A stretch of DNA of 64,000 nt. Source: a virus. This document shows, in pieces, positions 8,140 through 62,829 of the stretch. Each line of letters starts with the position of its first letter. Positions within the stretch are counted from its first letter, which is position 1. The DNA is taken from the UHGV virus genome UHGV-0468246; one strand, written 5' to 3'. The notes under the pieces were generated by a model. It was not told the DNA's origin and searched no databases. It was given only the letters and a program-made list of their open reading frames with translations. Position numbers and translations under genes: made by a program.

Positions 8140-8155
8140 TCGATTATTTTATCGA
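8140..8155 (-). promoter_or_regulatory. 16-bp palindrome TCGATAAAATAATCGA immediately 5' of the ribosome-binding site (copy 1)
   Basis: Inverted repeat TCGATTA/TAATCGA. Read on the minus strand it is followed by GAAGGAGCAAAGAC and then ATG. Nearly identical to copy 7 at 31331. Confidence 0.6.
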
Positions 8156-8175
8156 GCGCGCCAAGGCGCTCGCCC

Positions 8176-8514
8176 TTACTGGTATCCGTCGTACGTCTTG
8201 CCCTTCGGCTCGTTGAGCGAAAGGCGGAGCGCGAGGCCGCTGCCGACGCATCCGTCGCGGTCGAACTCCGTTTCCGGCGAGTTGAAGAAGCCGTCCGCGT
8301 CGAAGCCGAAGCGGTAGTCGGTGCCGGTCACCTTGAACCCTCTCGACATCAGGTCGGCGGCGCGCTCGTTGAACCTTTGCAGCGCCTCCCCGAACTGGTG
8401 AAGCTCCTCCATCGTCTCCTCCTCGATGAACGAAGTCTCGACGAAGCAGCCGCCCTCGGCAGGCTCCCACGCGCTGCCGTAGTGCTCGACGTACAGATAG
8501 ATCGTGTTCAGCAT
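8176..8514 (-). CDS. Hypothetical protein (112 aa)
   Basis: ORF. Confidence 0.4.
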   Translation of the reverse strand: MLNTIYLYVEHYGSAWEPAEGGCFVETSFIEEETMEELHQFGEALQRFNERAADLMSRGFKVTGTDYRFGFDADGFFNSPETEFDRDGCVGSGLALRLSLNEPKGKTYDGYQ

Positions 8515-8527
8515 GGCCCTCTCCTCC

Positions 8528-8740
8528 CTACAGCTCCGGTGCCAGATAGCACTTGCCGCCCAGCGCCTTGTACGCGCCGTATCGCTCGTCGGACATGCCG
8601 ACGTAGGAGAAGCTGCAACCTTCCAGCTCCGAACGGAGGTACTGGCGCATCTCCTCCTCGGTGCCGTACACGGCCATGACGCTCTCGAAGCCGTTGGTCA
8701 TGAGCCTCACGAGCCAGTTCCCACGATAGCCGTCCAGCAT
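8528..8740 (-). CDS. Hypothetical protein (70 aa)
   Basis: ORF. Confidence 0.35.
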   Translation of the reverse strand: MLDGYRGNWLVRLMTNGFESVMAVYGTEEEMRQYLRSELEGCSFSYVGMSDERYGAYKALGGKCYLAPEL

Positions 8741-8840: not shown

Positions 8841-8842
8841 GC

Positions 8843-11182: not shown

Positions 11183-11774
11183 TTGGGAGCCGCATTGAGC
11201 GCGCGCTGGCTCCCTTCCACTTCCGGCAAAGGCTTCTAAGGTCAAGCAGCCCTACTCCCGTTCGGGAACCCAGCCGGTCGCGGCATCCGCGCTCATGATC
11301 GCCTCCGCCGCGTGCTTTGCGCCCAGCCGCACCTCGATTCAGTGGCGTAGGACTGTGCCTGTCCACCATGCACGAATAGTGCCGCCCGCCCCTATGCCGG
11401 GTCTTTCGCATAGGGTTCGATGGGCGCTCCGCCCCTCCGAACAGAGCGCGCATCGAACCTCATGCCGAAGGGAAGAGCGCGGGACGGCGGAGGAATCGAA
11501 CCGCCTGATCGCCGACCACCTCAATCAAGGCGAACCCGCCCGACGACGCTTCCCGCCCTCAACGTATCGCCCTGCCGTCGCAAGGGGTATCCAGTGGGCA
11601 TCCAACGCCGCATGCGAGCCGTCCCGCTCCCCGCAGGACGCGTTTTCGGGCTTAGGTGACTCACCCTACTTGCATCCCGCTGACAGTGCCGTTCCGGCTA
11701 TTCACAGCCTTGCAGTGAGTGGTCGGCCTGTATGCCGCATCTCAACCGACTTGACCGCAAGGCGACTGCTCGTC

Positions 11775-11849
11775 TGGCACCCCCGGTAGGAATCGAACCT
11801 ACGACCTGATTCTTAGGAGGAATCTGCCCTTCCGCTGGGCTACGGGGGT
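11775..11849 (-). tRNA. tRNA-Arg (anticodon CCT)
   Basis: Cloverleaf: acceptor ACCCCCG/CGGGGGT, U8 A9, D arm GCCC-AGCGGAAG-GGGC, anticodon arm GATTC-CTCCTAA-GAATC, T arm GTAGG-TTCGATT-CCTAC, discriminator G and an encoded CCA. Confidence 0.85.
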
Positions 11850-12086
11850 GCGTTTTCAATGTTTCGTCCGGGAGGGTGTACGGCCCTCCCGGCTCCGGGC
11901 ATCCCCGTCGCGCTTGCCCGCTCTCCTCCCTCCACGGGAGGCGCGTACATGGGCGCTCCGAACGCCGTTGGGCGGGCATTGCCCCGCCGCCGCAACGGTA
12001 CGCGTACCTCGCTCCGGCGCGTTCGTCCTTCGTGCGCGCCGCCGAGCGTCTTATCTCGCCGGTGCGTCGCCCATGTTACCACACTT

Positions 12087-12129
12087 CTTAACTCTTGTCT
12101 TAACTTTTTCTTTCTTTTTTTTATCTTAC
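12087..12129 (-). repeat. AT-rich intergenic motif copy, minus orientation, with a TGTGGTAACAT extended -10-like box at 12073-12083
   Basis: Minus-strand reading GTAAGATAAAAAAAAGAAAGAAAAAGTTAAGACAAGAGTTAAGAAGTGTGGTAACATGG. Same architecture as the copies at 19928, 25001 and 29121. Confidence 0.55.
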
Positions 12130-12138
12130 AAAAGAAAG

Positions 12139-12156
12139 GCCCGCGATTGCGGGCCG
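12139..12156 (-). terminator. Hairpin GGCCCGC-gatt-GCGGGCC with a T-rich tail, next to an AT-rich motif copy
   Basis: Stem-loop followed on the minus strand by TTTCTTTTGT. Confidence 0.5.
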
Positions 12157-12167
12157 TGGCTTCAGTC

Positions 12168-12245
12168 CGGGAGGGCGGGAATCGAACCCGCACATGCTGT
12201 ACCTGTTATGGCGCGCCCAGTGCTCTGCCGTTGAGCTACCTCCCG
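12168..12245 (-). ncRNA. tRNA-like element with acceptor stem, D arm and T arm but no canonical anticodon stem
   Basis: CGGGAGG/CCTCCCG acceptor pairing, TA at positions 8-9, D arm GCTC-AACGGCA-GAGC, T arm GCGGG-TTCGATT-CCCGC. The ~30 nt in between (containing the GGCGCGCC palindrome) cannot form a 5-7-5 anticodon arm by my reading. CCA is not encoded. Confidence 0.4.
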
Positions 12246-12426
12246 ATGCATGGGAAGCGCCGGAGGAAGGTGCAATGCGCACCGTTCGGGCGCTTCCCAA
12301 GTTCGCTGCGGGTGCCCTCGCCGTCCGCAGTCAGGATGCCCACCGATGATGACTTTCGGCATCCTCCCTCGCCCCTCTGCGCGGCCCGTTCGCAGCGGCC
12401 CGTGCTCGGAACCCGCGTTCGGGAAA

Positions 12427-12649
12427 CTACCGGATAACGGCGTCCTCCCACCGCGTACCCCGCTCGCCTCCCCTGCGAAAGTCGGCCACGGGGGTGCCTT
12501 CGTGGATGCGCGCGAGCGTCACGTCCGATTCGTCCATAGCCCTAGCCATCGAAGGCCTAGCGCCACATCCCAAGGCATCAGCTTCGTCGCTGACGGAAAG
12601 TCGAGGGCGGGGAGCTGCGGGCCGACGATGCGACGGCGCGCCCCTCATC
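12427..12649 (-). CDS. Possible small Arg-rich protein (74 aa), or part of a structured non-coding region
   Basis: AAAGGA ribosome-binding site plus ATG at 12649, immediately after palindrome copy 2. Low confidence: the surrounding 12250-12700 is GC-rich and may be non-coding RNA. Confidence 0.2.
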
Positions 12650-12672
12650 CTTTCGGGCAGAACGGCGCAACC

Positions 12673-12688
12673 TCGATTAAATAATCGA
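12673..12688 (-). promoter_or_regulatory. 16-bp palindrome TCGATTAAATAATCGA (copy 2) inside the tRNA / non-coding region
   Basis: Perfect inverted repeat, followed on the minus strand by GGTTGCGCC...AAAGGATG. Confidence 0.5.
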
Positions 12689-12756
12689 CATGTCGCATCA
12701 ACCGCCCTCGGCCTTCCGTCAGCGGGCACCTTTCGATGCCGCGCTGTTTGTCCGTA

Positions 12757-19664: not shown

Positions 19665-19691
19665 GTCCGTCTCCTTTCTCGATTATTTAAT

Positions 19692-19883
19692 TCAGGCGAG
19701 CCGACGTATCTTGCCGGTTTCCCGGAAAATATGCCACGAGCTTACCGGCACCTTCGCCCCGCACCCTCCGCACACCAGAACGTGGTCGAACTCGAAGCGC
19801 TCGTCCCCGTCGCAGCGCAGATCGTGCTCGACAGTCCATTCCGTCGGCTTCTCGCAGCGCGGGCAGTAAAGCCAATCGTCCAC
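19692..19883 (-). CDS. Small zinc-ribbon protein (~63 aa, GTG start)
   Basis: AAAGGAGG ribosome-binding site plus GTG at 19883. My translation: VDDWLYCPRCEKPTEWTVEHDLRCDGDERFEFDHVLVCGGCGAKV... The upstream part of the track ORF 19692..20555 is a translation of the AT-rich promoter motif and an Arg-rich shadow frame. Confidence 0.5.
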   Translation of the reverse strand: MDDWLYCPRCEKPTEWTVEHDLRCDGDERFEFDHVLVCGGCGAKVPVSSWHIFRETGKIRRLA

Positions 19884-24962: not shown

Positions 24963-24978
24963 TCGATTAAATAATCGG
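24963..24978 (-). promoter_or_regulatory. 16-bp palindrome copy 4 (TCGATTAAATAATCGG) between the TGnTAAGAT -10-like box (24988-24998) and the ribosome-binding site of the GHKL gene
   Basis: Read on the minus strand: CCGATTATTTAATCGAGAGCAAGGAGGGCCATG. Confidence 0.6.
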
Positions 24979-25000
24979 CCTTGACCCATCTTACCACAAG

Positions 25001-25052: not shown

Positions 25053-25075
25053 GGGGAGGGCTTGTGGCCCTCCCC
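25053..25075 (-). terminator. Hairpin GGGGAGGGC-ttgt-GGCCCTCCCC with a T-rich tail on the minus strand
   Basis: Stem-loop followed on the minus strand by TTTTCTTTTGT. Confidence 0.55.
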
Positions 25076-28923: not shown

Positions 28924-28939
28924 TCGATTAAATAATCGG
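28924..28939 (-). promoter_or_regulatory. 16-bp palindrome copy 5 (TCGATTAAATAATCGG)
   Basis: Read on the minus strand: CCGATTATTTAATCGAGAAAGGAGACGGCGAGTG. Confidence 0.55.
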
Positions 28940-29335: not shown

Positions 29336-29351
29336 TCGATTATTTAATCGG
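29336..29351 (-). promoter_or_regulatory. 16-bp palindrome copy 6 (TCGATTATTTAATCGG)
   Basis: Located downstream of the 29344..29751 gene's stop, so it overlaps that gene's 3' end. Confidence 0.45.
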
Positions 29352-30660: not shown

Positions 30661-30672
30661 CGTCGTTTCCCT

Positions 30673-31330: not shown

Positions 31331-31346
31331 TCGATTATTTTATCGA
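31331..31346 (-). promoter_or_regulatory. 16-bp palindrome copy 7 (TCGATAAAATAATCGA on minus). The 35-nt cassette is near-identical to copy 1.
   Basis: Read on the minus strand: TTGTGATAGTCTGTTCCCAGTCGATAAAATAATCGAGAAGGAGCAAAGACCATG. Confidence 0.6.
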
Positions 31347-31375
31347 CTGGGAACAGACTATCACAAATATGCGAT

Positions 31376-39688: not shown

Positions 39689-39704
39689 TCGATTAAATAA
39701 TCGG
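39689..39704 (-). promoter_or_regulatory. 16-bp palindrome copy 8 upstream of the G9 tract and the dnaE start
   Basis: Read on the minus strand: CCGATTATTTAATCGAGAGACATGGATAGGGGGGGGGCACGGAATG. Confidence 0.55.
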
Positions 39705-39739
39705 GAGGGACTTCGCAGCCCCTCCCTAGAACGCGTCTG

Positions 39740-41092: not shown

Positions 41093-41808
41093 ATCGTTCC
41101 TCTTTCTCGTTGTTGTTTCTCGAACAATGCCATCAGGACGTGCGCCATGTACTTTTGGGCTTTTCGACCACTTTCGATCATGAAGATTCTTTCGGTCTCT
41201 ATCGCATATTGACGTTCGACGCGCTTCCTGATGCCCACCTCTACCTGCATTCGTATCCTGCGCACCTGCGCAGCTTCAAGAACGTACTGTGCCCAAGCAT
41301 CGACCTCCGTCTCGTCCTCGTCGGACATCACCATGTCCGGCTCCTTGTAATATGCCGTCCTCGCGCCGCGAGGCGGCGCGACAGGCCCTATCTCGACCCG
41401 CTCCGGCACCAGCGCCACTTCCACGCTGAACGCCGTCGCAGGCGGTCTCGCATCGTACTCCGCCCTAGCCGACGGGTCGGTGAGCGTCCGGTAGGCCCTG
41501 TACACCTCCACGAACTCGTCTTCCGAGCCTCCGTGGTCGGGGTGGGCCTCCATGAGGCGCTTCTTCGCCGCCTCCTTCAGCTCGGCATCGTCGGCATCGG
41601 GCGGCACGCCTATGAGGCGGTAGTAGCCCTCCGAATCGTGGCGCGCCCTCGGCACGTGCACCATCTCGGTGCCCGACCAGAAGAACGCGTCGCCGCCCGT
41701 CGCCGAGAGAACCAGCCCCCTAGGGACGGTCTTCGCCCTCTGGGGCTGCTTCGGGCGCGGCGCTTTCGTCAAGATCGACGACCTGTTCGGAACCCTCACC
41801 CTCACCAT
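41089..41808 (-). CDS. J-domain (DnaJ-like) protein
   Basis: YYRLIGVPPDADDAELKEAAKKRLMEAHPDHGG...YRAYRTLTDPSARAEYD, with an HPD motif. Confidence 0.75.
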   Translation of the reverse strand: MVRVRVPNRSSILTKAPRPKQPQRAKTVPRGLVLSATGGDAFFWSGTEMVHVPRARHDSEGYYRLIGVPPDADDAELKEAAKKRLMEAHPDHGGSEDEFVEVYRAYRTLTDPSARAEYDARPPATAFSVEVALVPERVEIGPVAPPRGARTAYYKEPDMVMSDEDETEVDAWAQYVLEAAQVRRIRMQVEVGIRKRVERQYAIETERIFMIESGRKAQKYMAHVLMALFEKQQRERGTI

Positions 41809-41911
41809 CGGCTCCCGCCTTCCGCTCCTCCTCGGCGACCTTCACCGCCGACGGCTTCTCCGCACTGTACTTCCTGAACGCCATTTCCGTCTCCTTTCGT
41901 CGGGGCGGCAA
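41720..41911 (-). CDS. Small acidic protein (63 aa). Overlaps the J-domain gene in another frame; doubtful.
   Basis: ORF with an upstream AGGAGA. Overlaps 41089..41808. Confidence 0.2.
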   Translation of the reverse strand: MPPRRKETEMAFRKYSAEKPSAVKVAEEERKAGADGEGEGSEQVVDLDESAAPEAAPEGEDRP

Positions 41912-41923
41912 TCATACCATGGC

Positions 41924-41957
41924 TGTAAGCCAAAAGTTAAAACAAAAAGTTAAGAAT
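41924..41957 (+). repeat. AT-rich motif copy, plus orientation
   Basis: GTAAGCCAAAAGTTAAAACAAAAAGTTAAGAATACG. Confidence 0.45.
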
Positions 41958-42858
41958 ACGCCCATGACGGCACGACTTCCCTTCCGTACACCGCCTCCCA
42001 GCATTCGCGCTTCGTCATCGCCGCCGGGTCGTCCCGCGTCGGAAGGACGGAGAAGACCTTGCAGAACGGCTCCAACATGCGCATGGCACGCAGCGTACCG
42101 GCGTGGCCCGCCTCGTCCGGGTCGTAGAAGACCAGCACGCTGTCGAACTTCTGGCGTATCAGGCGGGCCTGACCGTCGGACAGCTGGCACCCGAACGATG
42201 CCACCGGGTTGGGGAAACCGTACTGATCGAGCATGATTGCCGAAAGCGGTGCCTCCACCAAGATGCAGCTGTCGCCCTGCGAAGCGTTGTCGTATCCGAA
42301 CAGGATGATCTCGCGAGCCATGTCCTTGCTGTGGAGCCACTTCGGGAACACGTCGTTCGTGAGGGCGCGGGCCGTCCACGCGACCAGCTTGCCGCCGAAG
42401 AAGACGGGCACGACGGCCCTGTTCATCGAAGGGTCGTAGCCGAGCCTCCACTTCGCCACCGTCTGGTCGTTGAAGCCGCGCTCGCGCCAGTACGGGCAAT
42501 CGTGCCTAGTCCACTCCTCAACGTCGCGCTCCAACGGCGTGAGCGTCACGGACTTGTATGAGCTTCCCGCCATGAGCTGCTGAATCTCCGAGAACGACAG
42601 GTCGCCGTACAGGAGCCGGAGCGCCTGCGAGCGCGAGCATGAACGCTGCCTCATCACCAAGCCCGCAGCGTCCCCGCTGAAGCCGCAGCTGAAGCAGTGG
42701 TGGCGCAGCGTGTTCAGGTTGATCGACCACGACGGCTTCTTGTCGCCGTGCCGATGGTTCTCCGGGCACGGGCACGATGCCCACAGCTCGTCCCCGCTGA
42801 TATATGAGTTCTTCAGCTCCAAAAGGTCTATCAGCTTAGACGAATGAACCGGTCGCAC
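41950..42858 (-). CDS. dnaG: DNA primase (DnaG-like: CHC2 zinc finger plus Toprim)
   Basis: CPCPENHRHGDKKPSWS...HCFSCGFSGD is a CHC2 zinc finger. LVEAPLSAIML...VLVFYDPDEAGH is a Toprim domain. Likely GTG start at 42858 behind AAGAGGAGG; the track ORF starts at the ATG at 42882. Confidence 0.8.
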   Translation of the reverse strand: MRPVHSSKLIDLLELKNSYISGDELWASCPCPENHRHGDKKPSWSINLNTLRHHCFSCGFSGDAAGLVMRQRSCSRSQALRLLYGDLSFSEIQQLMAGSSYKSVTLTPLERDVEEWTRHDCPYWRERGFNDQTVAKWRLGYDPSMNRAVVPVFFGGKLVAWTARALTNDVFPKWLHSKDMAREIILFGYDNASQGDSCILVEAPLSAIMLDQYGFPNPVASFGCQLSDGQARLIRQKFDSVLVFYDPDEAGHAGTLRAMRMLEPFCKVFSVLPTRDDPAAMTKRECWEAVYGREVVPSWAYS

Positions 42859-42884
42859 ATCGCACCTCCTCTTATGCCGCATCG

Positions 42885-42900
42885 TCGATTATTTTATCGG
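42885..42900 (-). promoter_or_regulatory. 16-bp palindrome copy 9 (TCGATTATTTTATCGG) upstream of the primase
   Basis: Read on the minus strand: CCGATAAAATAATCGACGATGCGGCATAAGAGGAGG. Confidence 0.55.
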
Positions 42901-42902
42901 AT

Positions 42903-42945
42903 GTTAAAGAAAAAGTAAAGCAAGAATTAAGACAATAATGAAGAT
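42903..42945 (+). repeat. AT-rich motif copy, plus orientation
   Basis: GTTAAAGAAAAAGTAAAGCAAGAATTAAGACAATAATGAAG. Confidence 0.5.
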
Positions 42946-45296: not shown

Positions 45297-46231
45297 ATCC
45301 TCCCGCCGCGTCGGCGCTCGCGCGCTTTCTCGCGCATGTCCTCGCCGTCCACGCGCACGAGGTCGAAGCTCTCCGTGAACAACGATAGGACGTACTTGTT
45401 GTAGGCGGTCTCCAACCCCGAAGGGCACGACAGGTTCGTCGTGACGATGGTGGGCCGCGACTGCTGCGTGCGCACGCGCAGAAGGTTCTCGATCTGCCCT
45501 ATGGCGTAGTCGGTGCCCTTCGCGCCGAAGCCTCCCTCTATCTCCTTGCCGAGGTCGTCTAGGACGAGGACGCGGGCAGCGTCTATCTTGCGCTTGTACC
45601 ACTTCGCGTACTTCGCGTTGTTCCACCCCCGCTTCGTGTTCTCGATGTAGTCCTTGGCCGTGGTCATGTAGCACTCGATGCCGCGCCGCACGGCCTCCTT
45701 CAGGGCGAAGGAGGCGAGCATCGTCTTCCCCGTGCCAGCCTTGCCGAACATGACGAACCCGCGCCCTTCGAGCATGTTCACGTCGAGCGCGTCGATGTAT
45801 CCCTTCACGAACGCCTGCGCGTTCCGGTCTCCGAAATAGTCGTTCCAGTTCAAGCGCTGGTAGGTGAGGCCGATGCCCGCGTTCAGGTAGTGCTTGTAAC
45901 GCTGTAGCTGGTCGGCGCAGTTGCACCGCATCAGCGCGCCGTCAACGACCACCGTGCCGTCCACCCCCTCGCCGCAGTTCTTCATGCAGGTGGGGCAGAA
46001 GTACAGGTGGCTCGCTCCGAGGTCGGGGTAAACCTCGTACAGCTCGTCAGCGTCGTCCTGCGACAGCGCCATGTCCACGAGGGCCGAATCTTCGAGCCTC
46101 CCCGTCACATCCATAGGTTCTCCTTGCCCTCGTCCGCCTTCAGCTCCGTCAGCGCAAGATCGGTGAGCCACCGGAATCGCTTCGAGAACATTTCCTTGCC
46201 AACGGGGTTCCCGCGGTTGCGCCCCTTCCAC
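45290..46231 (-). CDS. DnaC / IstB-like AAA+ helicase loader
   Basis: Walker A FGKAGTGKT, Walker B VLVLDDLG, TTNL motif. Its stop overlaps the dnaB start within ATGGTAATGG. Confidence 0.7.
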   Translation of the reverse strand: MEGAQPREPRWQGNVLEAIPVAHRSCADGAEGGRGQGEPMDVTGRLEDSALVDMALSQDDADELYEVYPDLGASHLYFCPTCMKNCGEGVDGTVVVDGALMRCNCADQLQRYKHYLNAGIGLTYQRLNWNDYFGDRNAQAFVKGYIDALDVNMLEGRGFVMFGKAGTGKTMLASFALKEAVRRGIECYMTTAKDYIENTKRGWNNAKYAKWYKRKIDAARVLVLDDLGKEIEGGFGAKGTDYAIGQIENLLRVRTQQSRPTIVTTNLSCPSGLETAYNKYVLSLFTESFDLVRVDGEDMREKARERRRGGRIW

Positions 46232-46467
46232 TTCGAGAAGACGAACCGAGTTATCCTCGCCGCGTCCTCCGCGCCGTAGTCGCGGACGAACTGCTGCACG
46301 CTGCGCATCACCGGCGCGGTGAACATGGTGCGCTGCTGCATGGGGTCTACGTTGAAGAACTCGATGTAGCCCTTGCGGAAGATGTCGAACACCTTCCTCG
46401 CGTCGTCGTCCGTCGCGTATATGTTATGCGGTGTACCCGCTATCGCCGCCAAGTCCACTGGCATCAC
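46105..46467 (-). CDS. Hypothetical protein (120 aa)
   Basis: ORF. Confidence 0.4.
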   Translation of the reverse strand: MMPVDLAAIAGTPHNIYATDDDARKVFDIFRKGYIEFFNVDPMQQRTMFTAPVMRSVQQFVRDYGAEDAARITRFVFSKWKGRNRGNPVGKEMFSKRFRWLTDLALTELKADEGKENLWM

Positions 46468-46915
46468 ACACCTTGCCTATAACGTCTGCGGCCTCCTCCG
46501 GCCCCAGCTCCAACACAACCCCTCCGAAAGGCCCCCACAGGCTCTCTCCGACCTTGAAAACGAAGTCCAGAGGGAAGGCACCGTAAACCGCCTCATGCTC
46601 CTCTAGCAGCGTCCTGTACGGCTCGCCGCCGTCCGTGAGGTCTGCAACGTCGAACGGCGTGTCCCGGTGCACGACCAGCTGCAACGGGCGGTACAGATGG
46701 GCGAGGCCGCGCACGGCCTCGTTGACCATCATCGCGTCGCATAGGAGCTGGTTCACCGAGAAGGCCGCTGCGGCCACGTCGCCCATGGCGAACGGGGTCT
46801 TCCTGCGGTACACCTCGAACACGCTGTTCGCATGCCTCACGCAGGGGACGAACCGGCGGGCGAACGCCGCGCGCTCCAACGCGTCCCCTCCCGTCACGGC
46901 CACGTTGAGAATCAT
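46424..46915 (-). CDS. Hypothetical protein (163 aa)
   Basis: ORF. Confidence 0.4.
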   Translation of the reverse strand: MILNVAVTGGDALERAAFARRFVPCVRHANSVFEVYRRKTPFAMGDVAAAAFSVNQLLCDAMMVNEAVRGLAHLYRPLQLVVHRDTPFDVADLTDGGEPYRTLLEEHEAVYGAFPLDFVFKVGESLWGPFGGVVLELGPEEAADVIGKVCDASGLGGDSGYTA

Positions 46916-47223
46916 CGCCGCGCCGCCGCCTGCTGCTGCGCGAGCATCGCCTTGTTGGCGATCTTCTGCGCGATGCTGTCTATCTCCTCCTCGCAGATGG
47001 CCTCGCAGTCATGGTTCATCTGGTGCATGACGGCGGCGAGGTATTCCGTTGGCGGGTAGCCGGGGCCGATCTTGGCCGTCAGGGCCGCGCCCTTCTTTAT
47101 CCAGTCGCCGTTGGGGGACTGGATGGAGAAGTTCACGCTTATCTCCGCCTCGACATGGTACACGCCGAGCTGCGCCGTGGTCTGCGGCTGGCCCTGCTGC
47201 GGCGCGGTCTGCTGCCCCTCCAT
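46912..47223 (-). CDS. Hypothetical protein (103 aa)
   Basis: ORF. Confidence 0.4.
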   Translation of the reverse strand: MEGQQTAPQQGQPQTTAQLGVYHVEAEISVNFSIQSPNGDWIKKGAALTAKIGPGYPPTEYLAAVMHQMNHDCEAICEEEIDSIAQKIANKAMLAQQQAAARR

Positions 47224-47224
47224 G

Positions 47225-47845
47225 CTACTTCACCACCAGAGACGATGCGATCTTGCCTTGCGCGGCGGCCTTCTCGTCGGCCTTGGAGAACTGGCGCAGC
47301 ATGGTCTTGAAGGTGGCGGGGACGCTCACGGAGACCTCCGGGTCGTCGAACAGCTCCTTCGGCACCTTCAGGTTCTGGCCGAGCATCGCCTGCTCCAACT
47401 TCGCCTCGTCGATCTCGCGGGGCATCGAGACGGGGCGCGTGACCGACTTGAAAGCGTCCCAAGCCCTGCCGCTGCGGTCGTTGATGTCCTCTTCGTAGAG
47501 GCGGCACAGACCGGCGAGAAGCCCCTGCTCGGTGATGTCAACGGCCTCCTTGCGCGCGAACTCGCGGCACACCTTCTTCTGCTCCTCCATGCCGTACACG
47601 GACACGGGGGTTCCGTTGTCGGTGTACTCCTCCGTGAGGCGCGCCGCCTCTTCCTTCATGGCCTCGTATTCGAGTTCGGCGATCTCCGCCGCCTTCTTCT
47701 TCTCGGCGTACAGCTTCACGAAGGCGTTTGCCTTCGCCGGGTCTGACAGGTCTTTGGGCTGGTAGTCTTGGATTGCGAGGACTTCCTTGCCGACCTTGAT
47801 GATCTCTGCCATCGTTCCATCTCCTTTTGTTGGTTGCAATGACAA
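47225..47845 (-). CDS. Hypothetical protein (206 aa)
   Basis: ORF behind AAGGAGATGG. Confidence 0.45.
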   Translation of the reverse strand: MSLQPTKGDGTMAEIIKVGKEVLAIQDYQPKDLSDPAKANAFVKLYAEKKKAAEIAELEYEAMKEEAARLTEEYTDNGTPVSVYGMEEQKKVCREFARKEAVDITEQGLLAGLCRLYEEDINDRSGRAWDAFKSVTRPVSMPREIDEAKLEQAMLGQNLKVPKELFDDPEVSVSVPATFKTMLRQFSKADEKAAAQGKIASSLVVK

Positions 47846-47873
47846 GTCATATGTTAAACGGTCTCGCGACCGT

Positions 47874-47909
47874 TGTAAAGATAAAAGTTAAGAATAAAAG
47901 TTAAGACTT
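47874..47909 (+). repeat. AT-rich motif copy, plus orientation
   Basis: GTAAAGATAAAAGTTAAGAATAAAAGTTAAGAC. Confidence 0.5.
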
Positions 47910-48249
47910 ACTGCACGACATCCCATGTCTCGCCGCCGTCTGCGGACTGCGTGATGAAGGTGCTCGGCGGGAAGTTCGCGACGGCGTAGTCAACCATCGC
48001 CTTCAGCTTGGACGGGTCTCGGTCGAATATCTCGAAGCCGATCTGCGGGGCGCTCCCCGACTGCGCCATCACGGCCAGAAGCTCCAAGCCGGTGCAGGTG
48101 ATGCAGTCCCACGAGAAGGCCAGCCAGCCGATGCCGTGGTTAAGCTCTACGGCGCGGGGGTCGTCCGTCCACACGTAGTTCGTCCTCATGTTCTCCGGCG
48201 TGCGCGCCAGCCACACGTTGATGCGCGCCGCTACGAATCTGCGTCCCAT
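47908..48249 (-). CDS. Hypothetical protein (113 aa)
   Basis: ORF. Confidence 0.4.
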   Translation of the reverse strand: MGRRFVAARINVWLARTPENMRTNYVWTDDPRAVELNHGIGWLAFSWDCITCTGLELLAVMAQSGSAPQIGFEIFDRDPSKLKAMVDYAVANFPPSTFITQSADGGETWDVVQ

Positions 48250-48258
48250 TCCCGCTCC

Positions 48259-50019
48259 TTAAAAGCCGAGTAAGTATTCCATGTCGTTCATCATATCATT
48301 CTCGCCAGCCGCTTCATACTCGCCTATGCCCATCTCCTGCGCCAGCGCCTTGCGGCCCGCCATGGTCTCCTCTATGCGCTCCTCGATTGTGTCGCGCGTC
48401 ACGAAGCGGTATATGGTCACGCAGTCGTGCTTGGAGCTGATGCGGTGGATGCGGTCGCTGCGCTGCTGGTAGCGCGAATGCAGCGGCGGCGTGTCGTAGT
48501 GGAGCAGGTAGCGCCCCTCCGGAAGGTCTATGCCCTCGCGCCCAGCGTCGGACATGAGCATGAGGTTGTAGGTGCTCCCCTCTCGGAAAGACCGCTCGAT
48601 CACGCCGCGCTGCGCGTCCGTCTGCCCTCCCATGTACATGAGCGGGCGGTAGCGCTCCAAGTGCTTCGACAGCGGTATGAGGCAGTTGTGCGTGTGCTGG
48701 GCGAACACCACCATCTTCTCGCCGCCTCCCATGATCTGGTCTACCAGCTCCTCGGTCGCCTTCAGCTTCTCGCTGTTCTTAGACCCCGCAAGCTCCGGCG
48801 CGTGGCGCTGCACTATCCGGCGAATCTCGCGCAGCTGCTCGTCCCAGAACGGGTTGTCGCCTTCGTAGCGCCACACGTCCTCCATCAGAAGAACCTCCGG
48901 CATCCTGCACACGCGCTGAAGCATGAGCATGAACAGCGAGCGCTGCTTCTCGTCCCGGTCTACGCTGCCGCCGTACGCGGCGATCTCGTCGTACAGGGCG
49001 CGCTCCGGCGGCGACAGCTCCAAGTCAAGCACGATCTCCTGACGCTTGGGGAACTCCGCCGCTATCTCCGGGTTGGTCTTCTCCGCCATGAACACGCGGG
49101 GAGCCGAAAGCAGCCCCATAACGTCGAGGTTCTGGAAGCCGAGGTAGCGGTTCCACATGTCGCGCTCGCCGTTGCCGTACGTGAAGTAGTGCTCGAAGTC
49201 CTTCACGGTGCCGTAGATCGAGGCATCGAGGATGCGCCATTCGTTGTAGTAGTCCTCCGGGCTTTTCTCCAACGGCGTGGCGGTCAGGCCGCACTTGAAC
49301 CTGATGTCGAGCGTCTTTTCCAGCTTCTTGAACTTCTGGTGGCGGGGCCGCGCTCGGCTCTTCAACCGCTGAACCTCGTCGTACACGAAGAAAAGGTGCT
49401 TCCCGCGCAGGGCGCGCTCTATGAAGTTCCAGTCCTTCGTGTTGGTTCGGTCGTAGTTGACGACCCATATGTCGGAATCGTCGGTGTTGTACCACGCTTG
49501 GCGCTTCGCGGGCTTCGCGTTGCGGTTGACCGTGCCGACCGTCAGGCTCGTCGCCTTCTCCAACCACGGCACCCACTGCTTGACGAGCGGGGCCGGGCAG
49601 AACACCACGATCTTATCGACGGTGCCACGGTCGAACTCGCGCACGGCGAGCATCGTCCCCATGGCCGTCTTCCCCGTCCCGCACGAGCATATGAGCATGG
49701 TGTTGGGAACTCCGTCGAGCGCGTGGCCGCATCTGTTCTGAAACCTCTTCAGCTCGAACGGGAGCGTGAGGGACGGAGATTCGATGGGCGATTCGTCGCG
49801 CACCTGCCGCAAGCGCTCCGCCGCCCGCTCCGTGAACATGACCTCCATCGTCCTCGCCATGGTCTGGCACAGCTCGACGATGCGGTCGGAGTTCTTCAGC
49901 AGATGGTCGCGGGCGAGTATCCCGCTGTGGACGAACGGCATCAGCGCCGCCTCGTCGCCGTTGATCTTGAACTGCCCTCGGAACTCCTCGGACAGGTCAA
50001 CGCAGACCGTCTCTTTCAA
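48259..50019 (-). CDS. SNF2 / DEAD-like superfamily 2 helicase
   Basis: Walker A CSCGTGKT, DEAH-like YDEVQ, motif III LTATP, and C-terminal helicase motifs (...RIHRI...). Confidence 0.75.
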   Translation of the reverse strand: MKETVCVDLSEEFRGQFKINGDEAALMPFVHSGILARDHLLKNSDRIVELCQTMARTMEVMFTERAAERLRQVRDESPIESPSLTLPFELKRFQNRCGHALDGVPNTMLICSCGTGKTAMGTMLAVREFDRGTVDKIVVFCPAPLVKQWVPWLEKATSLTVGTVNRNAKPAKRQAWYNTDDSDIWVVNYDRTNTKDWNFIERALRGKHLFFVYDEVQRLKSRARPRHQKFKKLEKTLDIRFKCGLTATPLEKSPEDYYNEWRILDASIYGTVKDFEHYFTYGNGERDMWNRYLGFQNLDVMGLLSAPRVFMAEKTNPEIAAEFPKRQEIVLDLELSPPERALYDEIAAYGGSVDRDEKQRSLFMLMLQRVCRMPEVLLMEDVWRYEGDNPFWDEQLREIRRIVQRHAPELAGSKNSEKLKATEELVDQIMGGGEKMVVFAQHTHNCLIPLSKHLERYRPLMYMGGQTDAQRGVIERSFREGSTYNLMLMSDAGREGIDLPEGRYLLHYDTPPLHSRYQQRSDRIHRISSKHDCVTIYRFVTRDTIEERIEETMAGRKALAQEMGIGEYEAAGENDMMNDMEYLLGF

Positions 50020-57000: not shown

Positions 57001-58434
57001 GCGCGTGAAGACGAGGCGGAAGCCGTAGGCCGTCGCGAGGTTGAAGCGGAACGTAACCGTCGCCATGTCGCCCGTCACCGAAGCGCCGCCCCACGAGCGC
57101 GAGGTGTAGGACAGCGGCGTGCCAAGCTCGTTGGTGAGCTGAAGCCACGTTCCGGCCTCCTCGTCCACGAGGACGTACGGGACGATCTCCACGGGCTTCT
57201 TCGACACCTCGAACTCCAAGCGGTTCACCGGCACGCCCTTCTGAAGGCGAACCTCGAACCACTCGTGCGGCCTGTCCGCCGGATAGGCCTCGTCGCTCGA
57301 CCAGATGCGCGAGCTGCGCGCGTCCTCGCTGAACTGGCACTGCACGACGGGGATGTACTCGACGGGGTACGACCAGTCCACCATGCCGTCGGAGCCGTAG
57401 TACGAAGCGCTGTAAAGGCGGCTCGCAACGTCGGACACGGCGTTCGCCGCCTTCTGCAAGTCCGTCCGCTCCGACGTGCCGAGCGACCTGAACGCCGCCG
57501 CATGGCGCACGTCGTACGCCCCTATGTGCTCCGTCGATGCCGTCGCGTCCTCGATGGTGTAGGTGAAGTCGAACGTCTCCTCCTGATGGTTCACGAGGGC
57601 CTGCGTGGGGGCCTCGCGCCGCTCGTTGGGGGAGACCCACAGGTTCAGGTCGTCGTCAACGTCGTACTCCCAGTCGGGCCGCCCCGTGACGTAGCGCTTG
57701 ATCTGCCACAGGGAGCTTGACGCGAAGACATCTGCCACGGGCACGTCGGAATCGGGCCTCGTCTCCAAGATGAGGCTGTTGAAGAACTCGTCGCGCTGCA
57801 CGACGGTTATGACCGCATCCTGCGGCCTTATCCTCTTCGTTACCTTGTTGATGTTGTAGCGCTCCGCCTCGGTCACCTCGTCGGCATCGACGACCACAAC
57901 GTACTCGTTGTAGTCGGCCTGCGGGTACACGCCGGGCCGAAGGCTCGCCTGATCGCCGTCGTCCACGTTGACGCTCTCGTAGAACTTCCACGCTTCGAGA
58001 ACCTTGCACGGCTTTCCGCACGCCGCCTCCGATGCGAGGCGTATGCCGAAGGCGGTGCCGCCGTACTGGAAGGCCGTCACGTACTTGTGGATGCGCGCGC
58101 GGTACTTGGCATCCTTCGCGTCGGCCTCGTCCTCCTGCTCCTTCGTGACGAGGCGCGTGCGCGGGTCGAACGCGTACGATTCGCTTTCGAGCCGCCTGAA
58201 GCCGAGCACGCGACCGTAGAACTCGTCGAGGTCGTTGTAGTGCGTCTCGTCGAGGCTCGTCTGCAAGCGCTTCAGCATGAGGTGGTTGCGCGCGGCCTCG
58301 ACACCAGCGCCGCCGCAGAGAGCGTCGAGCAGGCGCACCATGTGCGACGAGCGCTTCTTGCTGTAGACCTCCTCCGGGAGGCCGGAAAGGTACTCCGCCC
58401 TGTTCGTCGGGCGCAGCTTGTTCACGCCGCCCAT
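54040..58434 (-). CDS. Giant tail / baseplate structural protein (1464 aa)
   Basis: Uninterrupted 4.4-kb ORF in the structural module. No enzymatic motif recognised. Confidence 0.5.
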   Translation of the reverse strand: MGGVNKLRPTNRAEYLSGLPEEVYSKKRSSHMVRLLDALCGGAGVEAARNHLMLKRLQTSLDETHYNDLDEFYGRVLGFRRLESESYAFDPRTRLVTKEQEDEADAKDAKYRARIHKYVTAFQYGGTAFGIRLASEAACGKPCKVLEAWKFYESVNVDDGDQASLRPGVYPQADYNEYVVVVDADEVTEAERYNINKVTKRIRPQDAVITVVQRDEFFNSLILETRPDSDVPVADVFASSSLWQIKRYVTGRPDWEYDVDDDLNLWVSPNERREAPTQALVNHQEETFDFTYTIEDATASTEHIGAYDVRHAAAFRSLGTSERTDLQKAANAVSDVASRLYSASYYGSDGMVDWSYPVEYIPVVQCQFSEDARSSRIWSSDEAYPADRPHEWFEVRLQKGVPVNRLEFEVSKKPVEIVPYVLVDEEAGTWLQLTNELGTPLSYTSRSWGGASVTGDMATVTFRFNLATAYGFRLVFTRLEAPYYKTLPDGALKADDFPFSIDMAGLSLHYDVMDAEDFAPAVFSDPFGNKVETEMAVSGPERLHDGMPSTFWCSKPNVTQSALEWLVFDLRDASGNASRVNSMRIDAVYGGCQMNVYSTEDGDWETASWKPYPAVYSLQSADYSLPLRKCTFVKLEFTGLSAIPYTVVSDGIEVEELEYPYEVKHYFEQQPASTYATELYRQLLTTQDSPIYEDRLGVYDAIGTSNIYQEAERQRGIEDIISQSYNPLYLPSLVTPASWRFTDNGAISSVLAENMRYERQLPQSPREPVEGKTVKMRFYEDGRHAYKTVRRERSDELAFVAAIREVSFGLSGLRAAVEPDSEFLAFANDASVIDKNVGFELTRDERMVPSTEEMNSLEFVNVNSAVAFKSFDFAVNQNPPREVFDHPSDMIEEWSGLNAEVESTEFGVSGTVLKMDAPASGPGANLLKFTKEMPITATANGQDGISLYNASVGKLTDVGEALRLTFGGNSNVSMSVPLAFPGCVQDGETVTLSFEYRGNIDSFGLFYFLQKTAPNVSIASKNPSAMSETEWNRYEWTFSMANANVRTNYQALLFYSLASYDATKWVEVRKGTLKLESGSKATPYTPAPDDGDEIGIQSQSKLVRSQAIASVQVDVFSVEARTWNLRCKDLSDEEVFNMRYEVEGGKWTTIGTVFTPQTGGMWWSNAYDYRLRIPLSGFVPTGTTVFVPNIDFSILRAQTTPMVRQDLKDFRVIYYNGVECQEIDCDITDNMELWFRVQDEIPAGTKAEGYYDYDLNQFVGAYYVYFGNPNETRAPMRDYHKVFKPLEQPCYEMAVNDPRGTISYEAKKGAHIDDAEASLQIEEAFRIDAGAGFLTFEYIPDEALARVPSGQRGTAEERYIIDYMDESRRFSVYTYEQQLMVRIVEPDGFVNTFADKSPAPFKAGVKSYVLIQWGEQGSEPVHSAPGRIDPNDKNRRSMDVWIDGVQRECINNVYNEAVYDNGVY

Positions 58435-60430: not shown

Positions 60431-60439
60431 GCCTTCTCC

Positions 60440-60877
60440 TTAGAGCGTCTGCGCGACGGAGACCTGCGTGGCCGCCGCCGTGCTCACGATGACGAGGACG
60501 TTCACGTTCGTGCCGGTCGCGCTGACCGTTATGCTGTTGAGGGTGGAAACTATGTCGTCGTCCGTCCAGACCTGTAGGAACTCGTTGTCCGAGAGGCGCT
60601 GCTTGTCCCTTGCGATCTGCTCGTTCTGGGCCGCTATGTAGTTCGTCACGACGCGGTTGACCTCCGAGCGGATGGCCGTCAGGTTGTCGTCGAACGCGGG
60701 TGCCCCTATGTAGTTCCAGAGGTCGGAGCCGAACTTGGGGTAGACGGCATCCGTGCCGATAGGTTCGAGCAGCCAAAGCGCCATCTCCTGCTGGATGCGC
60801 GCGGCCCCCTCGACCATCACGGGCTTGCCGTCCCCTCCTATGACTATATCGCCATCCGCGACCTTGATGCACTTCAT
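60440..60877 (-). CDS. Baseplate wedge gp25/W-like protein (145 aa)
   Basis: Small protein immediately upstream of the J-like gene. Size is typical of gp25-like proteins. Confidence 0.3.
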   Translation of the reverse strand: MKCIKVADGDIVIGGDGKPVMVEGAARIQQEMALWLLEPIGTDAVYPKFGSDLWNYIGAPAFDDNLTAIRSEVNRVVTNYIAAQNEQIARDKQRLSDNEFLQVWTDDDIVSTLNSITVSATGTNVNVLVIVSTAAATQVSVAQTL

Positions 60878-60945
60878 GCGGTCGTCTCCTTACCCTAGTC
60901 GTCTTACGGACATTCTAGCAGCAAGGGCGGTCGGCGGCGACGGCC

Positions 60946-62829
60946 TTACGCGTCGCGGGAAACGGAGAACACGAACAGCTCGCTCGCAAGCTCGGTGAGC
61001 ATGCTTTCCGCGAGAACGTCTATCCCCATGTACACGTGCCTGTCGCGGACGAGGACGGGTGCGTTCACGACCACATTGACGATGTTTTCAGCGCTCTGCA
61101 CCTGATCGTAGCCCGTCGCCCTCCCCTTTCCCATGACGGTGAGCAGCCCGGTTGCCCCAAGCCCTATGTAGAACGAGCGGTCGTAGTCCGAAACCAAGCC
61201 GCCGTCGAGCGTGACCGAGTAGATGTACTCGCGGATGTTCGCTGCGCTCTCGCCGAACAGGCCGACGAACGGGTACGGTCGCATCTCCACGGTGTCGTCC
61301 ACGTAGTATCCGCACCGACCGACGAGGCAGACGTACTTCCCGCCGCTCTCGATTATTTTATCGACAACCGCAATCGCGTCGGCCTCCATGTTCGACACCA
61401 TGAACAGGCATGTGGCGGCGTTCCGGCTGTACTTGTCCTCATGCTTCAGATCGTCATCGAAGAGAACCCTCATGCGGTTGCTCGTCTTGTCGATCATGAG
61501 CGATGCCATGGAGTACCACGCCTCCATGTACGACACGTTGGCCTCGGTCTGCCAGTTCGCCGCCTGAAGCGAGCGCATGGACAGCGCCATGCCGTTGTAA
61601 TCGGAGGCGTTGCGCTCCGATATGCGGTACTTGTCCATCGCGGCCCACAGCTCGATCACCTTCTCGTCCGATAGAAGGCGGTAGTCGGAGTAGTCGCCCA
61701 CGACGACCTGCGAGGCGTTGTACTTCGCGAGCACGGAGAACATTCCGTCGGGCTGCGTTATGTCGGGCACGTCGAGCACGAATACCGGCTTGCACGCCTC
61801 CCCGATGCGGCAGCACACGGCGGTCAACGCCTCGAAGCTGCGAAGCTCGCTCTGCTCGTCGGTGCTCTTCTGGTACTTCATGGGCATGCCCGCATAGGCC
61901 CAGCCGTACGTGCCGAAGTCGGACGCTATGCCGCTCCTCGCATACCCGGCACCGTCGGAATCGACTAGGCAGTAGGCGTAGTCGGGAACTATTGCCGTGA
62001 GGGCCGTCTGCCCTATCTTGGACTTGATCGAGACGCACAGCGCGCGCTGCTCCTCCGCGAGGAACGAGCGCCACAGCAGGTAGTCGTCGTCCACCCCGTT
62101 GATGACGTAGCGGTCGCTGGGCATGACGCGGTTCCGCTCGTAGAAGTTCCTGTCAGCCGTCGCGTTGCGGTCGTATCGCAGACCGGCAAGCCCGATGCCG
62201 TCGAGGCAGTACCCGTACACGTCGGTTCCGTGCATCGTGCGCAGCTCGTCGATGAGGGCGGTGAGCGCGTCCTTCGCCCCGGACGGCGAAAACATGCGCG
62301 AGTACTCGCCCGTGCTCGACCTCTGCTGGTACGGATGGAAGTCGGGGTTCGTCGTGTCGCTCCACAACTCTGACGACACGGCGCACGTCACGGCCACGTT
62401 GCGGTGCCTGAAACGGTCGAGCAGCTGCTTCAGAACCGGGTTCTTGCCCAGCCCGTAATCGGCGGCGACCTCGCTGTCCCAGTAAACCATGCCGTCCTTT
62501 GCGACGGTCAGAAGCACCTCGTCGAAGCCTGCGGACGCTATGTCCTCGACCACGACCCGCTCCTTGCCCACGCAGTCCGCCGCGTTCAGGCGGATGGCGT
62601 ACCGCATCACGTTCGTCTCGCCGTTGGTGACGCGGTTCCACAGCTTCCACTTGTTCGAGGCGATGCGCTGGATGAGCCACACTTCGTTGACCTTCGGCGG
62701 CTGGTCGAAGCCCGACAGGTCGAACGATATGGTGAGCTTGCCGGTCTGCGTCATGCATGTTATTCCGTCGCTGCCAACGTTGGTTATCATCGCGGGCAGC
62801 ATCTCGTTCTTGTTCATGTTCCTCTGCAT
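60946..62829 (-). CDS. Hypothetical structural protein (627 aa). Contains an in-frame copy of the 16-bp palindrome at 61349-61364.
   Basis: The embedded TCGATAAAATAATCGA encodes VVDKIIESG. Confidence 0.45.
   Translation of the reverse strand: MQRNMNKNEMLPAMITNVGSDGITCMTQTGKLTISFDLSGFDQPPKVNEVWLIQRIASNKWKLWNRVTNGETNVMRYAIRLNAADCVGKERVVVEDIASAGFDEVLLTVAKDGMVYWDSEVAADYGLGKNPVLKQLLDRFRHRNVAVTCAVSSELWSDTTNPDFHPYQQRSSTGEYSRMFSPSGAKDALTALIDELRTMHGTDVYGYCLDGIGLAGLRYDRNATADRNFYERNRVMPSDRYVINGVDDDYLLWRSFLAEEQRALCVSIKSKIGQTALTAIVPDYAYCLVDSDGAGYARSGIASDFGTYGWAYAGMPMKYQKSTDEQSELRSFEALTAVCCRIGEACKPVFVLDVPDITQPDGMFSVLAKYNASQVVVGDYSDYRLLSDEKVIELWAAMDKYRISERNASDYNGMALSMRSLQAANWQTEANVSYMEAWYSMASLMIDKTSNRMRVLFDDDLKHEDKYSRNAATCLFMVSNMEADAIAVVDKIIESGGKYVCLVGRCGYYVDDTVEMRPYPFVGLFGESAANIREYIYSVTLDGGLVSDYDRSFYIGLGATGLLTVMGKGRATGYDQVQSAENIVNVVVNAPVLVRDRHVYMGIDVLAESMLTELASELFVFSVSRDA

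Follow-up and report, generated by a model that had tools for sequence, protein, structure and literature searches.

A recurrent palindrome in an Eggerthella phage genome

The window analysed here, a stretch of 64,000 nucleotides (nt) from the virus genome UHGV-0468246, is ~99% identical to Eggerthella phage LE2-3 (MW679026, 111,961 bp, host E. lenta DSM 2243), and nearly all of its genes, which include dnaE, the primase gene and a GHKL/topoisomerase-like gene, have the minus strand as their coding strand. The LE2-3 lineage appears to be one of virulent myoviruses, with no integrase or repressor in the LE2-3 annotation or in domain scans. Dispersed over the window are ten copies of a 16-bp palindrome, most of them directly in front of a gene (Table 1), and this recurrent palindrome is real and biologically meaningful. 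A search with TCGATTAWWTAATCGA in which mismatches were tolerated recovered exactly ten copies, each with 0 to 2 mismatches and each at the position given in a preliminary description of the DNA. No match to TCGATTAWWTAATCGA occurred in 100 dinucleotide-preserving shuffles, in keeping with the claim of that description that ten copies are far from chance, while its value of 65% for the GC content was slightly high, the window being ~63% GC.

The element is sharply bounded. A position weight matrix trained on 17 sites and then run over the window scored the ten copies at 27–35 bits and the rest of the window, on the coding strand, at 10 bits or less, with a top score of 11.2 bits in 20 shuffles. 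This gap between the copies and the noise indicates a sharply defined element without a penumbra of degenerate copies. The coding-strand consensus is YCGATWAWWTAATCGA-G, in which the 3′ half and the G that follows it are invariant or nearly so, and position 1 (T/C) and position 6 (T/A) vary. What had been described as a near-perfect inverted repeat is therefore not fully symmetric when read on the coding strand, because its 5′ half varies. The copies can be sorted into class A (...GATTATTTAATC...), class C (...GATTAAATAATC...), which is the reverse-centre form of class A, and class B (...GATAAAATAATC...), which contains TAAAAT; TCGATTATTTAATCGAG is an example of a 30-bp stretch that carries the palindrome. 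Nothing is kept past 18 bp except a 30-nt cassette common to the copies at 8140 and 31331, and we rejected a mobile mini-element or simple repeat on these grounds.

A credible ribosome-binding site (RBS) and start codon follow within 30 nt at seven of the ten copies (8140, 19679, 24963, 28924, 31331, 39689 and 42885). The preliminary description had counted eight; the copy at 12673, which it correctly assigned to the tRNA region, is flanked by tRNA genes and lacks both a credible RBS or start within 30 nt and an annotated gene for ~120 nt. In the seven the palindrome stands 14–27 nt from the start codon, and in five of them exactly 14–15 nt. The RBS was said to be GAAGGAG or AAAGGAG, which does not extend to dnaE, with its poly-G run, or to the primase gene, with AGAGGAGG; the RBS sequences vary among the copies, AAGGAGG occurring besides GAAGGAG. 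The copies at 8140 and 31331 do share the cassette TCGATAAAATAATCGAGAAGGAGCAAAGAC(C)ATG, as reported. Window positions 8125–8155 and 31305–31346 have 30 identical bases that take in the palindrome, RBS and spacer ahead of unrelated genes, which suggests that an entire initiation cassette was duplicated or converted.

The immediate surroundings of the copies differ. AT-rich tracts adjoin only those at 24963, 31331 and 42885, and most copies have GC-rich flanks. The copy at 24963 does lie between a TGnTAAGAT box and the RBS, as proposed, and upstream of the box are an AT-rich tract and an intrinsic-terminator-like hairpin. This copy belongs to an extra segment of 7.5 kb that is absent from the LE2-3 record and encodes the GHKL/topoisomerase-like protein (phrog_6247, HATPase_c_3), a PAPS-reductase-domain protein and several unknowns. 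At 19679 the TGA that opens the palindrome doubles as the stop codon of the LE23_5 homologue, and at 29336 the dyad is lengthened by GC-rich flanks and followed by ~260 nt of intergenic DNA.

Table 1 Palindrome copies and associated features (window coordinates unless another record is named; the last column gives the corresponding LE2-3 position).
Feature	Position	Strand	Context	LE2-3
Palindrome, class B, TCGATAAAATAATCGA-G on the coding strand	8140..8155	(-)	14 nt 5′ of the LE23_29-homologue ATG; preceded by a short GC hairpin	13430
tRNA	12165-12246	(-)	tRNA region	
Palindrome, perfect 16-mer	12673..12688	(-)	tRNA region, 69 nt downstream of tRNA-Met	8894
Palindrome, degenerate, TGAATTAAATAATCGA-G	19679..19694	(-)	14 nt 5′ of the LE23_6-homologue ATG	1893
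Extra 7.5-kb segment	21010-28584		Replaces LE2-3 1-581	
Palindrome	24963..24978	(-)	Between the extended -10 and RBS of the GHKL/topoisomerase-like gene, 14 nt from its ATG (24948)	
Extended -10-like TGgTAAGAT	24988..24996	(-)	9 nt upstream of the 24963 palindrome	
Intrinsic-terminator-like hairpin	25053-25075		Upstream of TGgTAAGAT	
Palindrome	28924..28939	(-)	15 nt 5′ of an in-frame GTG start (28908), RBS GAAAGGAG	111607
Palindrome	29336..29351	(-)	Overlaps the LE23_139-homologue TAA stop	111195
Palindrome, class B	31331..31346	(-)	15 nt 5′ of the LE23_135-homologue ATG	109207
Extended -10-like TGaTAGTCT	31355..31363	(-)	8 nt upstream of the 31331 palindrome	
Palindrome	39689..39704	(-)	Directly after a GC hairpin, 27 nt 5′ of the dnaE ATG (39661)	100846
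GC-rich hairpin GGGAGGGGCTGCGAAGTCCCTCCC, terminator-like call	39703..39726	(-)	Abuts the dnaE palindrome	
Palindrome, class B	42885..42900	(-)	24 nt 5′ of the primase ATG	97650
Predicted sigma-70-like promoter, TTTACT-17 nt-TAAAAT	42891..42919	(-)	Overlaps the primase palindrome; -10 TAAAAT at 42891-42896	
Palindrome, class B, intragenic	61349..61364	(-)	In the LE23_106 homologue, in frame, read V-D-K-I-I-E in rare codons	79192
LE23_54	LE2-3 29824-30744		Outside the window	
LE23_54 homologue	L282 6949-7755			
LE23_54 homologue	L283 5736-6500			
LE23_54 homologue	L287 6169-7005			
LE23_54 homologue	L165 ~11614-12729			
Portal gene	LE2-3 40058-43279		Outside the window; intein/Hint (and LAGLIDADG) domains	
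LE23_71	LE2-3 45222-48335		Outside the window; intein/Hint (and LAGLIDADG) domains	

The palindrome is rare in coding DNA and kept in relatives

In the complete LE2-3 genome, which is annotated as 94% coding, 16 copies occur. Of all 16-mers, 92.9% fall fully within coding sequence, compared with five of the 16 palindromes (P = 8e-10). The like density inside coding DNA genome-wide that the preliminary description had set against its own proposal thus did not appear. Three LE2-3 copies provide the stop codon of the upstream gene, and four lie deep within genes, all of these in the single stop-free frame of the motif, which reads D-[K/Y]-[I/L]-I-E; the window copy at 61349, correctly described as in frame within a gene, belongs to a 627-amino-acid (aa) gene. 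The codons used are rare in the genome (TTA, 0.6% of Leu; AAA, 7.6% of Lys; TAT, 8.7% of Tyr; GAT, 12.6% of Asp), and across relatives the intragenic copies keep the same DNA word and encode different amino acids (D-Y-L-I-E vs D-K-I-I-E). The rare codons and the changes in amino acids under a constant DNA word indicate that it is the DNA word, and not the peptide, that is being maintained.

Syntenic relatives were recovered by protein-guided searches. L282 and L400, from one sample, have a GC content of 52% and a DnaE that is 78% identical, and carry the TCGAT-type motif, which is identical in L283 (GC 59%) and L287 (GC 64%). In two low-GC relatives, R37 (IMG/VR contig 3300045988_115635; GC 37%, DnaE 67%) and L401 (GC 39%, DnaE 68%), the corresponding sequence is TCAATWAWWTWATTGA, of the form TCAAT...ATTGA, so that position 3 and its symmetric partner, position 14, are both changed. 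L402 (DnaE 49% identical) has neither the palindrome nor a recurrent word in its place, and ordinary TTGACA/TATAAT and TGnTATAAT promoters occur in its intergenic regions. A phosphoesterase query aimed at the early region of R37 returned unrelated phages only.

Individual sites are conserved across these genomes. The copy upstream of dnaE is present in the window, L400 and R37, that upstream of the primase gene and that at the early promoter of the LE23_135 homologue in the window and L400, and that after the capsid gene in LE2-3 and R37; the sites upstream of LE23_50 and of LE23_55 are each found in five genomes, the site inside LE23_54 in four, with a second copy ~300 bp downstream, and the site inside RtcB in three. 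A comparison of diverged genomes, limited to eight pairs of clear synteny, gave 2 differences among 136 positions of the 17-nt core and 151 among 646 of the 40-nt flanks (Fisher 9e-12; the pairs are not phylogenetically independent). Near-identical variants taken by themselves gave no significant difference (core 0/136, flanks 15/640, p = 0.09).

Symmetry is confined to part of the element. Among 47 distinct instances from all genomes, only positions 2–5 and 12–15 are always complementary, and the central six positions are A/T only without complementarity being kept. Such an A/T-only, non-complementary centre is typical of an indirect-readout spacer that separates two half-sites.

The low-GC relatives add a second box. 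In R37 (L119, L165, L272, L273, L274) and L401 (18251), a Cheo/LexA-like box, CGAACAnnTGTTC, stands exactly 4 nt upstream of every palindrome, often in symmetric 52-bp palindrome-box-palindrome units. The LexA/Cheo core GAAC-N4-GTTC has two matches in the window, neither of them related to the palindrome copies; the box accompanies the palindrome in R37 and L401 only, and we rejected it as a component of the window element. L401 also has three tandem palindromes (8464, 8500 and 8524), 36 and 24 bp apart, within a DnaJ-domain gene, where they encode a repeated (L)NKIIE.

Position relative to promoters suggests a protein-binding site

The spacing between palindrome and promoter is specific to each locus. 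At P50, where GTGCGn (−35-like), a T-rich spacer and TGnTAnAAT are all kept even in R37, the palindrome ends 34–35 nt upstream of the −10 hexamer in five genomes, with its centre near −55. At P55, the order is TGaTACAAT, 1 nt, palindrome (centre near +3.5) and RBS, and the 1-nt gap is found in four genomes. The early promoter at 31331 has TGaTAGTCT 8 nt before the palindrome, a geometry repeated in L400 with TGaTAGTAT and the same 8 nt, and the GHKL-gene promoter has TGgTAAGAT 9 nt before it. At the primase gene, the −10 of TTTACT-17-TAAAAT lies within the palindrome, and the hexamers and their spacing are the same in L400, with a different spacer sequence. At dnaE, a GC hairpin, the palindrome and the RBS follow one another with no sigma-70-like promoter visible. 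R37 carries groups of two to four palindromes ~30 nt upstream of its early extended −10 promoters, one of the groups standing immediately behind a terminator. The occurrence of the same sequence at −55, over the −10, at +3, at +10 and within operons argues for a protein-binding site with a position-dependent effect rather than a promoter element.

Our favoured interpretation, which we consider about as likely as not (roughly 0.5), sees in the palindrome copies a dispersed set of operators. A dimeric DNA-binding factor would repress from sites at or past the −10, stop read-through from sites between genes and possibly activate from the site at P50. Judged from the sequences, an operator is the best-supported reading, given a dyad with a symmetric half-site change, orthologous sites that are kept as their flanks diverge, and locus-specific spacing to sigma-70-type promoters. 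The same evidence upholds the operator for a dimeric regulator suggested in the preliminary description, in which the word "phage" is unproven. The number of copies, their enrichment in non-coding DNA, their conservation, the covariation of the half-sites and the promoter geometry are observed, and we infer protein binding, its repressing or activating effect and the identity of the reader, for which we favour a phage-encoded protein. At the primase, P55, LE23_135 and GHKL promoters, a dimer bound over or just after the −10 would block initiation or promoter escape in a lacO-like manner. Intergenic copies without a promoter of their own (dnaE, LE23_29, LE23_6 and LE23_141) would act as roadblocks to read-through, like the stoperators of phage L5. 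At P50, at the head of the structural-gene block, the site near −55 could activate, or could compete with the alpha subunit of RNA polymerase for an UP-like AT tract. A single factor would thereby control early, replication and late genes.

The closeness of many copies to start codons raises a different possibility, that the element acts in RNA, as a 5′-proximal hairpin or AU-rich tract before the Shine-Dalgarno sequence that serves as a translational operator or enhancer, an S1 site, or an mRNA stabiliser or processing site. Such a role would account for the seven of ten window copies at 14–27 nt before a start, five of them at 14–15 nt, and for the coding-strand orientation of all asymmetric copies in the GC-rich lineage; most minimum-free-energy folds include a 5–6-bp hairpin, pair 3:14 switches from G:C to A:U in the low-GC lineage, and a role in translation has likewise been proposed for the start-associated sequence (SAS) of Cluster K phages (PMC3203893). 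However, only four pairs are always complementary, complementarity being lost at 6:11 in 24 and at 1:16 in 10 of the 47 instances, the compensatory 3:14 change represents one lineage split, and fold z-scores of −2.3 to +1.0 indicate structures no stabler than those of shuffled sequence. The P50 sites in five genomes and the early sites of R37 lie upstream of the −10, in R37 behind a terminator, the predicted P55 transcription start falls within the palindrome, and one copy precedes tRNA genes rather than an open reading frame. R37 and L401 show class-B-type asymmetry in both orientations, and Rfam matched tRNAs only, with no family for the element. A site that lies ahead of a promoter or follows a terminator should be absent from the mRNA, and we therefore rank an RNA function below DNA binding. 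Overall we regard it as quite unlikely, and the translational regulator acting at the mRNA 5′ end that was initially offered as an option is weakened accordingly, with upstream sites at P50 and in R37, only 4–5 AU-rich pairs that are always complementary and shuffle-like folds; an RNA-level role limited to the subset of copies 14–15 nt before a start codon is conceivable.

A promoter function has more to commend it at some loci than at others. The palindrome could be the −10 and start region of a lineage-specific promoter class, used by the host RNA polymerase with or without an unrecognised phage factor, the conserved G lying at or near +1. Class-B copies contain TAAAAT, which fits TAnnnT, with a conserved purine 7 nt past the hexamer, and the primase TTTACT-17-TAAAAT is kept in L400. 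Copies often lie between a terminator-like hairpin and an RBS with no other promoter, as at dnaE in three genomes. In a distant relative, L281 (~900–1000; capsid protein 43% identical), a TTGACT-N17-TATAAT promoter follows the capsid-gene terminator where LE2-3 and R37 have the palindrome. The all-or-none conservation, the ~17 copies per genome and the coding orientation are reminiscent of T7-type promoters, and in R37 an upstream box is fixed 4 nt away. Against this, 11 of 17 copies (classes A and C) have no TAnnnT hexamer in register, and the dyad symmetry with its symmetric half-site change is left unexplained. Separate conserved extended −10s stand at differing distances (P50, P55, early and GHKL promoters), the transcripts of five genes would start 0–3 nt before the Shine-Dalgarno sequence, and four copies are deep within genes. 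No phage RNA polymerase or sigma factor was detected by Pfam and PHROGs scans among 112+ proteins, all large ones included, and such a protein was rejected as the reader, although a novel factor could have escaped these scans. We think a promoter class rather unlikely; the −10 core mentioned in the preliminary description finds no support as a general rule, but the primase TAAAAT does appear to be a −10.

Candidate readers of the palindrome

The same scans gave no helix-turn-helix (HTH) protein among the 112+ proteins, consistent with the earlier remark that no HTH regulator is obvious in the window. Outside the window, LE23_54 matches the PHROGs "replication initiation protein" and "O-like", and in two relatives HTH_36. 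Its C-terminal domain is conserved, but at the N terminus winged helices of three unrelated types have replaced one another, one type being 55–60% identical to HTH_36/DUF6017 proteins of Firmicutes integrative elements. The palindrome might be the binding site of LE23_54, an origin-type dyad in the protein's own gene as for lambda O, with the other copies secondary and also affecting transcription. The PHROG and HTH_36 matches point that way, as does the intragenic palindrome that four genomes keep despite amino-acid changes, with its second copy ~300 bp on. However, the three unrelated N-terminal types occur with an identical palindrome, the intragenic copy is absent from R37, no palindrome of this kind lies near the distant homologues of Firmicutes integrative elements, and origins are not organised as dispersed single sites at gene starts. 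The winged helix differs under the same palindrome, and LE2-3 and R37 share the type but not the half-site, which makes LE23_54 a poor candidate; with its N-terminal domain swapped and no similar palindrome near its distant homologues, we rejected the winged helix as the reader and consider a LE23_54 site highly improbable.

LE23_55 is a weak candidate. The palindrome lies over its own promoter in five genomes, and the family is restricted to the lineage, with nine homologues in 5.8 billion proteins plus the R37 orthologue. The protein has an N-terminal CxxC...CxxH domain of ~70 aa, a basic disordered linker with an invariant G-P-K in a conserved SGPKP[LF]KR-like stretch, and a conserved C-terminal peptide. 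Pfam gave no hit even at E <= 10, and an impression by eye that it is Lsr2-like was unsupported by Pfam, AlphaFold or Foldseek.

The reader may instead come from the host or from another mobile element. The palindrome could be a nucleation or high-affinity site for a nucleoid-associated protein that binds AT-rich DNA, either an H-NS/Lsr2-like silencer or a global host factor, and would then be a landmark for promoter silencing and counter-silencing. The high-affinity nucleation motif of H-NS is tCGATAAATT, and the half-site TCGAT[A/T]AA[A/T]T matches 9 of its 10 positions, among them the T-A step at the centre and the TCG at the 5′ end (PMC2094087). Each copy stands out as an AT island against a genome of 63% GC, usually at a promoter, and no phage regulator was found. 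In addition, a rolling-circle Rep/XRE element of Gordonibacter sp. An230 (L372 3470, 7127) and Ca. Rubneribacter (L364 2436), an Eggerthellaceae element with no detectable proteins in common with the phage, carries the identical 16-mer. The ~150 bp around the first 16-mer are identical between the two bacteria, and a hybrid TCAAT...ATCGA copy lies 3.6 kb away in the 3′ end of the Rep gene, read L-N-K-I-I-E. The presence of the 16-mer in an element without common proteins hints at a reader that is not phage-encoded. We rejected homology between the Gordonibacter element and the phage: the two small genes that follow the palindromes showed just a marginal similarity over 34 aa, and the high acidity of LE23_135 makes this match unreliable.

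A nucleoid factor nonetheless fits several observations poorly. The motif was defined for H-NS, which is proteobacterial, whereas the host belongs to the Actinomycetota. Silencers spread over long AT tracts, whereas the phage sites are precise inverted pairs, and most copies are isolated 10-bp AT cores in GC-rich flanks. The strict outer CGAT/ATCG and the all-or-none scores point to base-specific recognition. No Lsr2 or H-NS Pfam domain occurs among the phage proteins, and the exact 17-mer is absent from the E. lenta representative genome; a scan for exact 17-mer matches in one genome per species gave 102 scattered single hits, none in E. lenta, and a host regulon was rejected. With the H-NS-motif match and the Rep/XRE element, a host or nucleoid-protein reader is possible but, in our judgement, doubtful. 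An extended version, which we hold to be decidedly improbable, makes the palindrome a shared control word of an Eggerthellaceae host global or nucleoid factor on which unrelated mobile elements converged or which they exchanged; the low-GC sisters would tie it to LexA-type SOS boxes, so that a silencer-like factor and the SOS repressor would together gate the lytic programme.

A dispersed operator read by a dimer is itself opposed by several observations. No binding protein was found, and Pfam and PHROGs show no classical regulator among the 112+ proteins; LE23_54, the sole winged-HTH protein beside conserved sites, has N-terminal domains swapped among phages that share the motif, and the AlphaFold model of LE23_55 is poor (predicted local distance difference test score 54), with no Foldseek match in the PDB. 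Unlike phiC31 and L5, the phage has no annotated integrase or repressor and is apparently virulent. Phage-specific promoters, more than graded operator families, typically show such all-or-none conservation, and the five copies placed exactly 14–15 nt ahead of a start codon could point to an RNA or translation role. Finally, the GC-rich lineage combines a degenerate 5′ half with a fixed 3′ half and G, always in coding orientation, which a purely symmetric dimer does not predict; this orientation bias may arise in part because class-B copies double as −10 hexamers and because the left half overlaps stop codons, hairpins or promoter DNA.

Comparison with known dispersed elements

The palindrome resembles a dispersed operator set but belongs to none of the phiC31, L5 or SAS sequence families, nor to that of the extended start-associated sequence (ESAS). 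Streptomyces phage phiC31 is temperate, and its sites are read by the products of repressor gene c, which has three isoforms. It reportedly has a highly conserved inverted repeat of ~16–17 bp in ~18 copies, mostly intergenic and near gene starts or promoters. The likeness lies in an actinobacterial phage with a conserved ~16–17-bp inverted repeat in many dispersed copies. The phage studied here, in contrast, appears virulent and yielded neither a repressor nor an integrase; its palindrome is unrelated in sequence and is also present at replication and structural genes. phiC31 and L5 have 18–30 dispersed repressor sites per genome (PMC4557955).

The stoperators of mycobacteriophage L5 and its Cluster A relatives comprise more than 20 near-identical sites at promoters and in short intergenic spaces, whose orientation tracks transcription and which block both initiation and elongation (PMC9283540). 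The palindrome copies likewise lie largely outside genes. Stoperators, however, have 13 bp, are asymmetric and are bound by a two-domain immunity repressor that acts as a monomer in temperate phages, whereas the element described here is a 16-bp dyad whose orientation bias is limited to the degeneracy of one half, with class-B asymmetry both ways in R37 and L401.

The lac operator lacO1 is centred at +11. The dyad between the −10 and the RBS at the P55, LE23_135 and GHKL promoters recalls this arrangement, and a dimer bound there would stand in the way of initiation or escape. The two are not homologous, and palindromes are also found at −55, over the −10, in operons and inside genes.

In Cluster K mycobacteriophages, the ESAS and SAS combine an imperfect inverted repeat, a SigA-like promoter and an RBS-containing word at selected gene starts, with a consensus that varies by subcluster (PMC3203893, PMC11373665, PMC12699233). 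A conserved cassette directly upstream of selected gene starts is common to both systems. The SAS is a 13-bp asymmetric sequence that includes the RBS (GGGATAGGAGCCC) and lies 3–9 bp from the start, whereas the palindrome stops before the RBS. The ESAS is a unit of ~46 bp with 15–17-bp arms, a spacer and promoter hexamers within, whereas here only the 16–18-bp dyad is kept and the promoters differ by locus.

E. lenta is a drug-metabolising gut bacterium, and its lytic phages are considered for microbiome editing. The palindrome marks ~17 control points, among them the early genes, the primase gene, dnaE, the tRNA region and the head of the structural block, and genetic tools and shuttle vectors for E. 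lenta exist (PMC9734109). The relatives provide a natural experiment on the identity and specificity of the reader, with the same sites at 52–64% GC, a half-site switch at 37–39% GC and loss in the next clade. A phage-encoded reader without a known DNA-binding domain would represent a new regulator family, and a host factor common to mobile elements would offer a common handle on mobile DNA in Coriobacteriia.

Additional features of the window and LE2-3

Runs of G8–G10 occur in or near the RBS region of dnaE and the primase gene and after the capsid gene, at window ~39665–39685 (the dnaE leader), LE2-3 ~57010–57030, and L400 6960–6975 and 10040–10050; in the GC-rich phages CACGG often comes next. 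These runs could be strong Shine-Dalgarno sequences or slippage-prone tracts. Of the two LE2-3 proteins with intein/Hint domains, LE23_71 is annotated as a tRNA synthetase, for which Pfam gives no support. For the tRNA at 12165–12246, ARAGORN gives a four-base anticodon (cgcc) and no amino acid; the gene is annotated as tRNA-Cys in the LE2-3 record, and its Rfam score of 48.8 bits is below those of both neighbouring tRNAs.

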